From an uncultured Candidatus Saccharibacteria bacterium (GTDB lineage: Bacteria > Patescibacteriota > Minisyncoccia > Sungbacterales > SURF-37), in NCBI GenBank assembly GCA_964395285.1, contig CAYNAP010000002.1, positions 1 to 37,102 on the forward strand: DNA of 37,102 nucleotides, written 5' to 3'. The notes under the pieces are model-generated. The model was not told the DNA's origin. It made no database searches and saw only the letters and a program-made list of their open reading frames with translations. The translations under genes and the position numbers were made by a program. This document shows, in pieces, positions 34,105-36,435 of the stretch. Position 1 is the first letter of the stretch. Every line of letters starts with the position of its first letter.

Positions 34105-34605
34105 CTAGGCTTTTTTTAGAATAGCGCTAAGGCCTTGAGGGGTGAATTTAATGTCTTGCTCCAAAGAGTGCCCGGGCACGAGGGCCAGGAATTCCTGAAA
34201 GCGCTGGCGGGCGAAGTCGCGCAGGGATTTTTCCCGGCCGCGCAGCACCATGTCAACTTTTACTTTGTGGCCCTCGTTAAGAAACTCTCCGGATTGCCGG
34301 GCCCGCAACTCCAAGTCGTGCTTCCCGGTTTTGAAACCAATTCTTATCATTTTGACTTCGGAATGCTGTTCTTTGGGCTTGCGTTCCCGTTCTTTACGCG
34401 CTTCCTCGTACTTAAACTTGCCGAAATCCATTATTTTGACCACGGGCGGATTGGCGGTTGGCGCGATTTCTATGACATCGATTTCTTTTTCCTCGGCAAT
34501 TTTAAAGGCCTGTTCCAAAGGCATCTCACCTAAATTCTTGCCCGAGTCGTCAATAGCCCGGACAACAGTTGCGCGTATTTGGTTGTTGATGCGGTAGCGG
34601 CGGAT
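34105..34605 (-). CDS. infC: Translation initiation factor IF-3, probable non-AUG (AUC) start
   Basis: The conserved N-terminal sequence RINNQIRATVVRAIDDSGKNLGEMPLEQA extends 27 codons upstream of the first ATG. The in-frame ATC at 34603-34605 lies 4 nt after the upstream gene's stop codon. Confidence 0.8.
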   Translation of the reverse strand: MRRYRINNQIRATVVRAIDDSGKNLGEMPLEQAFKIAEEKEIDVIEIAPTANPPVVKIMDFGKFKYEEARKERERKPKEQHSEVKMIRIGFKTGKHDLELRARQSGEFLNEGHKVKVDMVLRGREKSLRDFARQRFQEFLALVPGHSLEQDIKFTPQGLSAILKKA

Positions 34606-34609
34606 AGGG

Positions 34610-35038
34610 TTACTCTTTCTTATTTTTATTGAATACTTTCTTAATTAGGCCTTCTGGTCCGAATAAACCGAGGGACAAAATTATAGCTCCAGCCAAATAT
34701 CCACTCAGCGAGAATATTTCATTCATGTACTCATATTTGGAATTTAAGTACGAGCTTAAGAGTATAGCTGCACCTAATAGAGTGACAATCGATGGGCTTA
34801 GGGTTGCTTTAGATACTTGTTGGGATCGTTGTATTCCTCTTTTTCTTCGAATGGTTTGAGTTATTGCTAGTGCTAGAAATACTATTCCGATGGAAAAAGA
34901 AATAAAGATGTATATTCCTGCTTCCAACGCCCCGAAGGTAGCACGAGATTTAGCCGGCAATAAAATAGCTATGAGTGCCGGGATTACTATAAGGAATATT
35001 CCTGTGAAGATATAATAACTTTTTTCGTTTGAGTTCAT
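34610..35038 (-). CDS. Hypothetical 4-TM membrane protein (low GC)
   Basis: 142-aa ORF with hydrophobic segments. A sampled line, 34681-34740, has 22/60 G+C. Confidence 0.5.
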   Translation of the reverse strand: MNSNEKSYYIFTGIFLIVIPALIAILLPAKSRATFGALEAGIYIFISFSIGIVFLALAITQTIRRKRGIQRSQQVSKATLSPSIVTLLGAAILLSSYLNSKYEYMNEIFSLSGYLAGAIILSLGLFGPEGLIKKVFNKNKKE

Positions 35039-35060
35039 TGTTTTGGTTAACTTTTCGATT

Positions 35061-35085
35061 GAGATGGCGGGAGTTGAACCCGCGT
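35061..35085. repeat. 25-bp duplicate of the tmRNA 3' end (att-like)
   Basis: gagatggcgggagttgaacccgcgt is identical to 36045-36069. Confidence 0.9.
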
Positions 35086-35124
35086 TGCTACTTTACTCGG
35101 GGGTCTTGTAAAGTACTTACGGTT

Positions 35125-36000
35125 TTATTTTTCTTTGTAGTATTTAACGAAGGCAGGCGTGTCTTTTTCCTTAGGCATTCTATTTATTTGTACCAGCACT
35201 TTTTTATAGTTATCCAAGAAACCGTAAAAAATGTTGTTGTAACGATCCGTCTTTGTGCGACAAGCCCAAAAATCGTTATAAACTTCGGTTATATCAAAAG
35301 CATCATCGGGGTCGCATTTTTTCTCGACTGTCTGGACTAGCGGTTTAGTGAGAGTGTAAAGCAGAAACATATACTGCTCTTTGGAGTTAGTCGGATTTGA
35401 ATACCCTCCTCCGCCAGAAAGATCAATGTCTTGCGTGTACCAATCCGGTTTGAGAAAGTGCGGGTTCGCGATACCGAAACTTGTTGTTCCAGGTGGGAAC
35501 GCCTCTTTACCCGAAGCGTTTCGCAACGTTTTTATAATGGTGTTTATAGCTAGCCGCGGGTCAATAAAATTTCTTTTGACTTGGTAGGCGCCAGCGAGGA
35601 CGAAAACGACCCAAACGAAAGCGAGCACAAGCTTGAGTTTTAACAGCATCCGAGTATCGCCTCCAGCTCTTTTTCTCAAAAAAGAAGCAGCGAGTCCCCA
35701 ATACATCAGGAACAAGACGATAACCGCTGGCACTCCAGTGATGGCCCAGAAACCGCAGCCTATTTCTTTGCATTTGAGCTGGGAAACAATCGACCACGGT
35801 GAAATGATTACCCACGGCATCGTTCCTTTTGCCGCGGTCAGGGCTATTTCTGAAAATGGTATTTCTTTTATGGCATTAACACTTGTTGCTTCATTATGGA
35901 ACTTATCTAAATCGATGGGATAAAGATCCCACGGAAAAATAAAGTATGTTACCGCAAAGAAGAGGAGAGTAATTAGAAACGACGTAAAAAAAGTTTTCAT
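35125..36000 (-). CDS. Hypothetical membrane protein (low GC), the only gene between the tmRNA-end repeats
   Basis: 291-aa ORF with several TM segments. A sampled line, 35881-35940, has 21/60 G+C. No family recognised. Confidence 0.55.
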   Translation of the reverse strand: MKTFFTSFLITLLFFAVTYFIFPWDLYPIDLDKFHNEATSVNAIKEIPFSEIALTAAKGTMPWVIISPWSIVSQLKCKEIGCGFWAITGVPAVIVLFLMYWGLAASFLRKRAGGDTRMLLKLKLVLAFVWVVFVLAGAYQVKRNFIDPRLAINTIIKTLRNASGKEAFPPGTTSFGIANPHFLKPDWYTQDIDLSGGGGYSNPTNSKEQYMFLLYTLTKPLVQTVEKKCDPDDAFDITEVYNDFWACRTKTDRYNNIFYGFLDNYKKVLVQINRMPKEKDTPAFVKYYKEK

Positions 36001-36039
36001 GGTAGTTATCTATCAGATTGTGGTTCGTGTAAATTGAAC

Positions 36040-36435
36040 TGGTGGAGATGGCGGGAGTTGAACCCGCGTCCAGATCGGTCGAGATTCAAATTTGTACAGG
36101 AATAGTTTGATTGATTTGAAACCAGAAACTTAAATCAAACTAAATATTTCTGATTTTTTCCGGTCTTGGTCGAGCGTCTTACCGGAGTTAGCGCCCCGAG
36201 CCCAAATGGTTGGCACCGCGTTTATCCCTATGGGCGCGGAATAAGGCGATGGCTTACGCTTAAATTTAAACGAAAGCGGGAGCAAAGGAATTAACTCCGA
36301 AAGCCGAAGCTAAAGCTGACTTTGCTTTTGAGAATAAGTTTGCACTTATTTGGTTGCGAGTTTTTAACGAGGTGGCTCAAGCGCCCTCGTCCTGAACTTG
36401 AATCTGTCAATGATCTGTCGAGGCCTGTCATCCCC
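36040..36435 (-). ncRNA. ssrA: tmRNA (SsrA), one-piece, CCA encoded
   Basis: On the minus strand the 5' end reads GGGGAUGACAGGCCUCGAC. The 3' end reads GACGCGGGUUCAACUCCCGCCAUCUCCACCA. The acceptor pairing GGGGAUG/CAUCUCC includes the G3-U pair. A candidate tag reading frame is present, and smpB lies immediately upstream. Confidence 0.9.

Follow-up and report, generated by a model that had tools for sequence, protein, structure and literature searches.

We identified a candidate integrase-less mini-island at ssrA, the transfer-messenger RNA (tmRNA) gene, in a 37,102-nt stretch of DNA from an uncultured Candidatus Saccharibacteria bacterium (GTDB order Sungbacterales). This stretch, hereafter the window, is the whole of contig C2 of a metagenome bin that comprises 917 kb in 104 contigs and is 83% complete. 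A 25-nt sequence from the 3' end of ssrA recurs downstream of the gene, and the 959-nt segment between the two copies contains a single open reading frame (ORF) of 291 aa, designated orf291, which lies on the ssrA strand. The second 25-mer is probably, although by no means certainly, an attachment-site scar. A minimal or decayed ssrA island is the best reading of the locus because of the geometry of the repeat, the empty sites found in relatives, the foreign composition of the segment and the lack of a fitting integrase both on the segment and elsewhere in the genome.

The repeat, GAGATGGCGGGAGTTGAACCCGCGT (ACGCGGGUUCAACUCCCGCCAUCUC when read on the minus strand), occupies positions 35061-35085 and 36045-36069 (plus-strand coordinates). 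Its two copies are identical at 25 of 25 positions, are in direct orientation and start 984 nt apart, with copy 2 located downstream of ssrA. We searched for it in both the window and the whole genome, allowing up to 3 mismatches in the window, and used 100 dinucleotide-preserving shuffles as a control. Two copies were present in the window at this tolerance and none in the shuffles, and the count for the entire 917-kb genome was also two, both in the window. An earlier note on this DNA had claimed that an exact 25-nt repeat of the tmRNA 3' end is beyond chance, and these counts agree with it. The same note had described an intact tmRNA gene accompanied by a displaced 3' fragment in direct orientation. 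This geometry was recovered as well: ARAGORN and Rfam recognized a full-length ssrA (tag peptide ANLFSKAKSALASAFGVNSFAPAFV), and copy 2, 984 nt downstream, was itself scored by Rfam as a tmRNA fragment (model positions 346-363, E = 1.8e-4). The repeat includes 2 nt before the T-stem, the whole T-arm (GCGGG/UUCAACU/CCCGC) and 6 of the 7 bases of the acceptor 3' strand; identity ends 1 nt before the end of the acceptor and 5 nt before the encoded CCA terminus (...CACCA). It is thus centred on the T-arm, the commonest sublocation of attachment (att) sites (PMC4383910), which supports the interpretation of copy 2 as a scar. A third, degenerate repeat, as in a tandem-island model, was not found after orf142, the ORF that follows copy 2; the sequence there is the conserved start of infC, the gene for initiation factor IF3.

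Comparison with relatives provided a second line of evidence. The ssrA gene was located in 55 further members of the order; wherever infC was found, the arrangement smpB-ssrA-infC-rpmI-rplT was the rule. In the window, too, rpmI and rplT lie downstream of infC. In most relatives (for example G003, G004, G012, G041 and G048) the infC match began 100-200 nt after ssrA, compared with 1516 nt in the window, and since the aligned part of IF3 starts ~75 nt inside infC, the true spacers are shorter still. These loci are therefore empty sites, and with respect to the ancestral arrangement orf291 and orf142 both represent inserts. The comparison of occupied and empty ssrA-infC sites, which had been proposed earlier as a check, thus revealed an empty state in G003, G004, G012 and most of the 25 further genomes.

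The composition of the two genes is also foreign. The G+C content of orf291 was 0.425 and that of orf142 was 0.366, whereas the genome averages 0.503 (sd 0.037, 900-nt windows). The two genes thus rank among the lowest 2.6% and the lowest 0.1% of genome windows, respectively, and the island as a whole has a G+C content of 0.41 vs 0.50 for the genome. The earlier description of an AT-rich pair was correct in this respect, and orf142 is indeed an insert when compared with the empty sites; however, it does not belong to the repeat-bounded unit, since it lies outside it, 4 nt before the AUC start of infC.

Although orf291 had been described as an orphan, this proved not to be the case. We found an orthologue (P0002, 75% identical) at the same position in another metagenome, and the ratio of nonsynonymous to synonymous divergence for this pair (dN/dS 0.165, with dS 0.78) indicates that orf291 is a real gene under purifying selection. 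A profile search of 1.84 billion representative proteins detected ~20 additional, distant members of the family (23-30% identity), which had the motifs FPW..LYP, PW..SPW, C..GC, SGK.PFP.GT, W.C, GFLD and PTFF.YY in common along the full length. Even with the profile, the family was not found in any of 61 genomes of the order and 400 genomes sampled from the class, and a protein-pattern scan of metagenome and genome contig collections yielded no relatives. Those contigs of distant members that were fetched had a G+C content of 36-42%, matched by that of the gene, which points to a lower-GC donor lineage for orf291; one distant member adjoined pyrD and efp, not ssrA. No match to orf291 was found in Pfam, PHROG, PADLOC or NCBIfam. 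An AlphaFold2 model based on a 15-sequence alignment had a predicted local distance difference test score (pLDDT) of 82.6 and a predicted template modelling score (pTM) of 0.78, and a model from two sequences was poor (pLDDT 37). The former model contained long hydrophobic helices at residues 2-21, 82-113 and 116-163, which we interpret as membrane segments; its C-terminal domain is rich in beta structure and has conserved cysteines. A Foldseek search of the PDB with the model returned nothing at E <= 0.001; the best matches were TiME- or LolA-like half-barrels with TM-scores of 0.2-0.35. In our reading, orf291 would be a membrane-anchored envelope protein whose function is not assigned by family or fold.

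A fragmented metagenome bin of 104 contigs raises the question of whether the layout could be an assembly or binning artefact, that is, a collapsed repeat or a chimeric join at a 25-mer common to several species. The ssrA 3' end is indeed common to several species, and two Logan contigs carrying orf291 or its homologue, L034 and L035, both break exactly at the 25-mer. However, L035, an independent assembly from another run, passes without a break from the end of ssrA through orf291 and repeat copy 2 into the start of orf142, with 4 single-nucleotide differences in 1216 nt. Since L035 reproduces the same order, the layout is not an assembly artefact. In addition, the 25-mer is shorter than the k used for the Logan contigs, and the flanks are contiguous with the conserved neighbours smpB and infC. 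This explanation is thus largely refuted, and we hardly give it credence. As a separate observation, L034 and L035 come from different runs and both begin at the very first base of the 25-mer (ACGCGGG...), which fits a graph branch at a shared tmRNA end, contributed either by other species or by an alternative junction.

According to the mechanism that we favour, a segment of ~0.96 kb would have been inserted by recombination inside the T-arm/acceptor part of ssrA, bringing its own copy of the ssrA 3' end beside its single cargo gene, orf291. The incoming copy would now complete the functional tmRNA gene, encoded CCA included, and the original 3' end would have been displaced 984 nt downstream. 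We infer that a site-specific recombinase made the insertion. The most likely enzyme class would be the large serine recombinases that, in the same order, converge on the 3' ends of tRNA and tmRNA genes. The unit may be the trimmed remainder of a larger element or else a cis-mobilisable cassette served by an enzyme acting in trans, and it might still move. The sequence leading into the join in the window is ...GTAAAGTAGCA, and the right flank of repeat copy 2 is AATCGAAAAG. Under this model, the empty-site junction would read ...CCGATCTGG-25-mer-AATCGAAAAGTT, and the junction of the 984-bp circle would read ...AAAGTAGCA-25-mer-CACCAGTTCAATTT. We refer to the unit as integrase-less because no recombinase gene is present on it and no fitting one was found in the genome.

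A single, Xer-sized tyrosine recombinase is encoded in the genome of the window, on contig C26. None of 30 relatives had a tyrosine integrase near ssrA; most had one Xer-sized gene, located elsewhere. In contrast, genes for large serine recombinases (500-600 aa) occur in 26 of the 61 genomes of the order. Nine of 12 such loci that we examined adjoin a tRNA or tmRNA gene, and in seven of these nine the recombinase gene converges on the 3' end of that gene and reads antisense into it, so that the C-terminal tails of the enzymes are antisense translations of the T-arm and acceptor. The targets of these convergent genes are tRNA-Arg, -Ala, -Leu, -Glu and -Met and, in G036:C26, tmRNA; the last residues of the latter recombinase, ...WWRWPELNRRPEDL (...WWRWPELNRR), correspond to the antisense translation of the tmRNA end. 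G031:C124 is a second ssrA case, judged from coordinates alone. The loci concerned are L063-L072, L077 and L089 (in G015, G020, G023, G017, G006, G008, G036 and G031); in two cases in G015, the recombinase gene is co-directional with tRNA-Ala and located just downstream of it. A similar layout is known for DsiB, the enzyme of the ssrA-specific genomic islands (ssrA-GIs) of Dehalococcoides, which is a large serine recombinase whose reverse-strand gene overlaps attL (PMC3146451). The DsiB-type layout was absent from the window and its genome and present in the order (G036:C26 by translation, G031:C124 by coordinates). An antisense open frame of 103 codons (35029-35340, plus strand) occupies the position of the serine recombinase tail in a DsiB-type element: it starts before copy 2, reads through it (...RLRWRELNPR...) and continues into the 3' end of orf291 in antisense. 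We found no similarity of this frame to any recombinase, and it is probably due to chance.

Several observations weigh against the proposed mechanism. First, as had been noted earlier, the single gene between the repeats is not accompanied by an integrase: the ORF list, Pfam, PHROG, NCBIfam and tblastn revealed no recombinase on the segment. No serine recombinase was found in the 83%-complete genome either, and tblastn with the serine recombinases of relatives detected no remnant of one in the window or genome. Second, in G006 and G008, where serine recombinase islands are located at tRNA genes, no repeat of at least 11 nt was present within 8-20 kb, and these islands of the proposed enzyme class thus provided no template for the scar in this order; moreover, in those islands it is the recombinase gene that abuts the tRNA or tmRNA gene, whereas here orf291 does. 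Third, the repeat falls 1 nt short of the acceptor end, and copy 2 ends in CATCTC-A, whereas a working end needs CATCTC-C; in its present form, copy 2 could not have served as a working 3' end because G1 would face A. Fourth, L034, the contig that encodes P0002, has the order ssrA, orf291 homologue and infC, and lacks both a second repeat and orf142. If the insertion is as old as the divergence of orf291 (dS 0.78), a neutral 25-mer should not have stayed perfect.

With regard to the end of copy 2, the earlier note had cautioned that the fragment continues with AATCG and not with CACCA as in ssrA. The difference is real, but it carries less weight than was given to it. The CCA is not encoded in most relatives, and three of them have trailers of the type ...CTCCA(T/C)TCGA, so a single substitution or a 1-nt deletion could produce the end of copy 2. 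We also considered the 22 nt after copy 2 as a native ssrA trailer homologous to those of G003, G004 and L034; this candidate was not supported, as shuffled sequences often matched the local alignment score (p ~0.06 at best).

The first 30 nt of L034 are those of the ssrA 3' end, as in the window; the orf291 homologue follows after 60 nt, and the conserved infC start lies 78 nt past the stop codon of the homologue. The non-coding flanks of L034 could not be aligned with those of the window. The linkage of the ssrA 3' end with orf291 is therefore kept across a dS of 0.78 between unalignable flanks, as would be predicted for a gene that moves along with an att copy. This association looks old or recurrent, and the perfect 25-mer in the window looks young, since a neutral 25-mer would not be kept intact at a dS of ~0.8. 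For L034, either its scar has decayed or been deleted, or orf291 is a resident of that lineage. Two scenarios fit these data: (i) orf291 with its own copy of the ssrA end entered two lineages separately, and the scar was lost in L034; or (ii) orf291 was resident behind ssrA in an L034-like lineage, and its import into the lineage of the window brought the ssrA end along, with homologous recombination on one side and an irregular junction on the other. A minimal or decayed ssrA island, as proposed in the earlier note, remains the best reading of the locus; one simple recent integration does not, because it leaves the absence of a second repeat in L034 unexplained.

The second scenario leads to the main alternative, which needs no site-specific enzyme and which we regard as unlikely. 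Here, the segment would have been imported by recombination from a relative with orf291 resident after ssrA, as in L034, through homology in smpB/ssrA on one side and an illegitimate or short-homology, Campbell-type crossover in the recipient's ssrA 3' end on the other; the last ~25 nt of the recipient would have been stranded before its own orf142-infC. The gene order of L034, without a second repeat or orf142, corresponds to the donor-type arrangement, and the lack of a recombinase on the unit and in the genome is as expected. Repeat-less, unrelated cargo in the ssrA-infC spacers of many relatives also fits exchange via homology of flanking genes, and ssrA alleles appear mobile between lineages: the window tmRNA groups with that of G003 (support 96/92) and not with that of its congener G001. 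However, import requires that an arbitrary breakpoint fell by chance 2 nt outside the T-stem, giving exactly the T-arm and acceptor strand, and repeats starting in the T-loop at four other tRNA and tmRNA genes of the lineage point to a site-directed process. It would need a later mutation for CATCTC-A as well, the relative that was sampled is 25% diverged in protein, and no actual donor is known.

The tmRNA tree (window and 16 relatives) conflicts with taxonomy in that G003 belongs to another genus. The window tmRNA encodes a 25-residue tag and that of G001, which belongs to the same genus as the window, a 15-residue tag; genus g3 has both long-tag and short-tag ssrA alleles. This suggests that ssrA alleles have been exchanged between lineages. 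G036 contains two unrelated full-length tmRNA genes (C1:645-1019 and C26:1957-2318), one of which has a serine recombinase island; bin contamination, a strain mixture or an element-borne copy could account for them. This pair could not be used as an occupied/empty pair because the sequences are unrelated.

A different kind of explanation, which we consider very improbable, is that copy 2 is kept for RNA function, as a T-arm-like processing or stability hairpin that separates orf291 from orf142 in a long smpB-ssrA-orf291-orf142-infC transcript. Selection or gene conversion would then preserve the repeat, which would not be a recent scar. The genes are indeed on one strand and tightly packed, a terminator scan found no terminator-like site between ssrA and infC, and the 25-mer is perfect even though the association of orf291 with ssrA looks old (dS 0.78). 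In addition, the fragment folds as a T-arm hairpin beside an 8-bp hairpin, which lies in the 39-nt spacer between the orf291 stop and copy 2. However, the fragment lacks the 5' strand of the acceptor and thus does not mimic a substrate of RNase P or RNase Z; the orthologous locus in L034 does without the copy; and no other genome has such a signal behind a gene. What probability remains falls to something other than the explanations discussed here. Features of the locus and of related loci are listed in Table 1.

Table 1. Features of the smpB-infC region of the window and of inserts at tRNA and tmRNA genes in the same genome and in relatives.
Feature	Location	Strand	Remarks
smpB, 152 aa	36496..36954	-	Upstream partner of ssrA; Pfam PF01668 SmpB, E = 9.9e-52
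ssrA (tmRNA gene), full length, encoded CCA	36040..36435	-	ARAGORN; Rfam RF00023, 143.7 bits, E = 1.6e-57, model positions 1-374
Repeat copy 1 (attL-like core), inside ssrA	36045..36069	-	3' edge 5 nt short of the ssrA terminus
Last 5 nt of ssrA (CACCA) and 39-nt spacer to orf291 start	36001..36044	-	Terminator scan: no site
orf291	35125..36000	-	Single gene between the repeat copies; ORF, 75%-identical orthologue
8-bp hairpin TACTTTAC/GTAAAGTA, no U-tail	35089..35115	-	RNAfold of 35039-35127
Repeat copy 2 (attR-like candidate scar, displaced ssrA 3' fragment)	35061..35085	-	Rfam fragment match; identical in L035
orf142	34610..35038	-	22 nt after repeat copy 2; outside the repeat-bounded unit
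infC (IF3)	34105..34605	-	Pfam IF3_N and IF3_C; right-hand neighbour of ssrA
Insert at ssrA of G009	L010 1861-2365		Repeat 28 nt, insert 449 nt
Insert at ssrA of G024	L011 1829-1981		Repeat 17 nt, insert 119 nt
Insert at ssrA of G035	L087		Repeat 21 nt, insert about 130 nt
Insert at tRNA-Pro, genome of the window	C17:12571-12641	-	Repeat 17 nt, insert 120 nt
Insert at tRNA-Ser, genome of the window	C40:892-983	-	Repeat 18 nt, insert 158 nt
GIY-YIG gene, G001 (same genus as the window)	L005 540-809		ssrA-infC spacer
GIY-YIG genes, G010	L037 584-892 and 2567-2830		ssrA-infC spacer
GIY-YIG gene, G025	L014 about 2021-2220		ssrA-infC spacer

Evidence for a site-directed process also came from other tRNA and tmRNA genes. 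Repeats of 17-28 nt, extending from the T-loop to the 3' end of the gene or past it, bracket small GC-rich inserts at three ssrA and two tRNA genes, and duplicative insertion at the T-arm is thus recurrent in this lineage. The inserts that we examined (all but that of G035) have a similar architecture, in which a hairpin with a CTGC loop, present in three copies, is followed by the T-loop and T-stem of the target gene itself, copied in inverted orientation (GGGAATCGAAGG, GGGATTTGAAGG or GGGAATTGAAGG), by GC-rich hairpins and then by the repeat. The G024 insert together with the repeat folds at -59.7 kcal/mol. These inserts look like an undescribed, non-coding family of T-loop-targeting elements. 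The repeat in the window differs from them in that it starts before the T-stem and encloses a gene, and no inverted copy of the T-arm was seen; the unit probably represents another type of element with a similar choice of site. Partial 3' copies also follow other tRNA genes of the genome (C44:7839-7975, C96:3019-3209 and C17:3340-3475). In C44, tRNA-Pro is followed after 24 nt by a fragment extending from the anticodon loop to the 3' end and having a different acceptor stem, and comparable partial copies accompany tRNA-Val and tRNA-Ile; they may represent earlier integration scars or adjacent pseudo-tRNAs.

A bolder interpretation would unite the mini-island with the T-loop inserts. Sungbacteria might possess a capture system at the T-arms of tRNA and tmRNA genes, served in trans, in which recombinase-free units are inserted with duplication of the 3' part of the gene. 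Such units would range from ~120-nt structured non-coding elements to single genes such as orf291, and the orf291 unit would be a mobile cassette that entered the lineages of the window and of L034 independently. We consider such a system quite unlikely. If true, the ends of tmRNA and tRNA genes would form the basis of an integron-like system for gene capture, which would merit far more attention.

The ssrA-infC spacer is a hot spot that has repeatedly collected unrelated small genes in this order. Spacers of other members contain genes for GIY-YIG nucleases, unrelated orphan ORFs, small structured inserts, or nothing. The nuclease genes (PF01541, E 1e-12 to 1e-16) are small and free-standing and were found in three relatives; the insert in G001 opens with an ~18-nt inverted repeat that starts at the ssrA end. 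The orphan ORFs of G006, G007, G002, G027 and G030 had no Pfam match; one has a signal-peptide-like start, and others read from sequence as small membrane proteins. The second gene of the window, orf142, is a low-GC orphan with four hydrophobic segments as read from its sequence. No homologue other than itself was found among 5.8 billion proteins, only sub-threshold matches to membrane families were obtained from the family libraries, and it was absent from the ssrA-infC spacers of relatives. Likewise, exact-word scans for the junction upstream of orf142 gave no match in collections of metagenome and genome contigs. In our explanation, orf142 represents low-GC cargo of its own in this hot spot, either a separate event or older cargo. 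Next to it, infC starts with a non-AUG codon, AUC (34603-34605), 4 nt past the orf142 stop. Relatives, including genomes with an empty site, conserve the nucleotide sequence of this start region, ATCCGCCGCTACCGCATCAAC.

Taken alone, the unit is a small and probably stranded case of the known type of integration into ssrA with a displaced 3' fragment. The closest known counterparts are the ssrA-GIs of Dehalococcoides, which are bounded by ssrA and a 20-bp direct repeat of its 3' end (McMurdie et al. 2011, PMC3146451). Together, the 31 islands carry 47 rdhA genes and 75 genes for hypothetical proteins; a six-gene integration module is present in about half of them, and 15 lack an integration module and were proposed to be cis-mobilisable or fixed (PMC3146451). 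Both these islands and the unit in the window lie directly downstream of ssrA and are bounded by a repeat of its 3' end (20 bp and 25 nt, respectively), about half of the former lack a recombinase, as does the unit, and the DsiB-like layout occurs in the order of the window, at G036 and, by coordinates, at G031. In contrast to the multi-gene cargo of Dehalococcoides, the unit described here has a length of 0.96 kb and one gene, for an uncharacterised membrane protein. It shows one displaced copy (at up to 3 mismatches) in place of tandem arrays, and its repeat ends 5 nt before the ssrA end, whereas the repeat of the ssrA-GIs is the terminal 20 bp. No recombinase was found that would serve the unit in the window's genome, and the host belongs to the candidate phyla radiation. 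The unit is an unusually small ssrA island of a known kind that includes integrase-less members.

A broader comparison is provided by the islands catalogued by Islander (Hudson, Lau & Williams 2015, PMC4383910; Williams 2002, PMC100330). They, too, consist of an intact target gene and a displaced 3' fragment in the same orientation, the att site lies in the T-stem region, the fragment borne by the island regenerates the gene, and ssrA is a favoured, indeed the most enriched, target (PMC4383910). The empty site in relatives and the foreign composition of the segment agree with the Islander definition. However, Islander requires a tyrosine integrase, which is absent from the unit and from the vicinity of ssrA in relatives, and at <1 kb the unit is far smaller than a multi-gene island with its own integrase. 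The island signature can thus shrink to one gene, and island finders based on integrases would miss such units. The 2015 Islander paper stated that serine integrases were not known to target tRNA genes (PMC4383910). Given that serine integrases have long been thought not to use tRNA genes, the tRNA- and tmRNA-directed serine recombinases of this order and the T-loop inserts deserve a study of their own. The value of the present case lies in this context, a hot spot in the ssrA-infC spacer of ultra-small, streamlined genomes.

The unit can also be compared with cis-mobilisable elements (CIMEs), which were reportedly shown by Pavlovic et al. in 2004 to derive by deletion from integrative and conjugative (ICE) or integrative and mobilisable (IME) elements in the ICESt1 family of Streptococcus thermophilus. 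CIMEs are thought to depend on the recombinase of a related element. Like a CIME, the unit in the window is flanked by attL- and attR-type repeats and has no genes for recombination or transfer. Unlike a CIME, it has no cognate element or recombinase in its genome, it carries one gene, and its copy 2 is imperfect at the 3' edge. The term cis-mobilisable was also used for the Dehalococcoides islands (PMC3146451). Finally, there is a likeness to integron cassettes, which are promoter-less single genes inserted one by one at the same chromosomal position by an enzyme that they do not encode themselves. However, no IntI is present beside the site, there is neither an attC hairpin nor an array, and the sole tyrosine recombinase is on contig C26; the candidate recombination site here is a copy of the tmRNA gene end, in place of an imperfect palindrome of the attC type.

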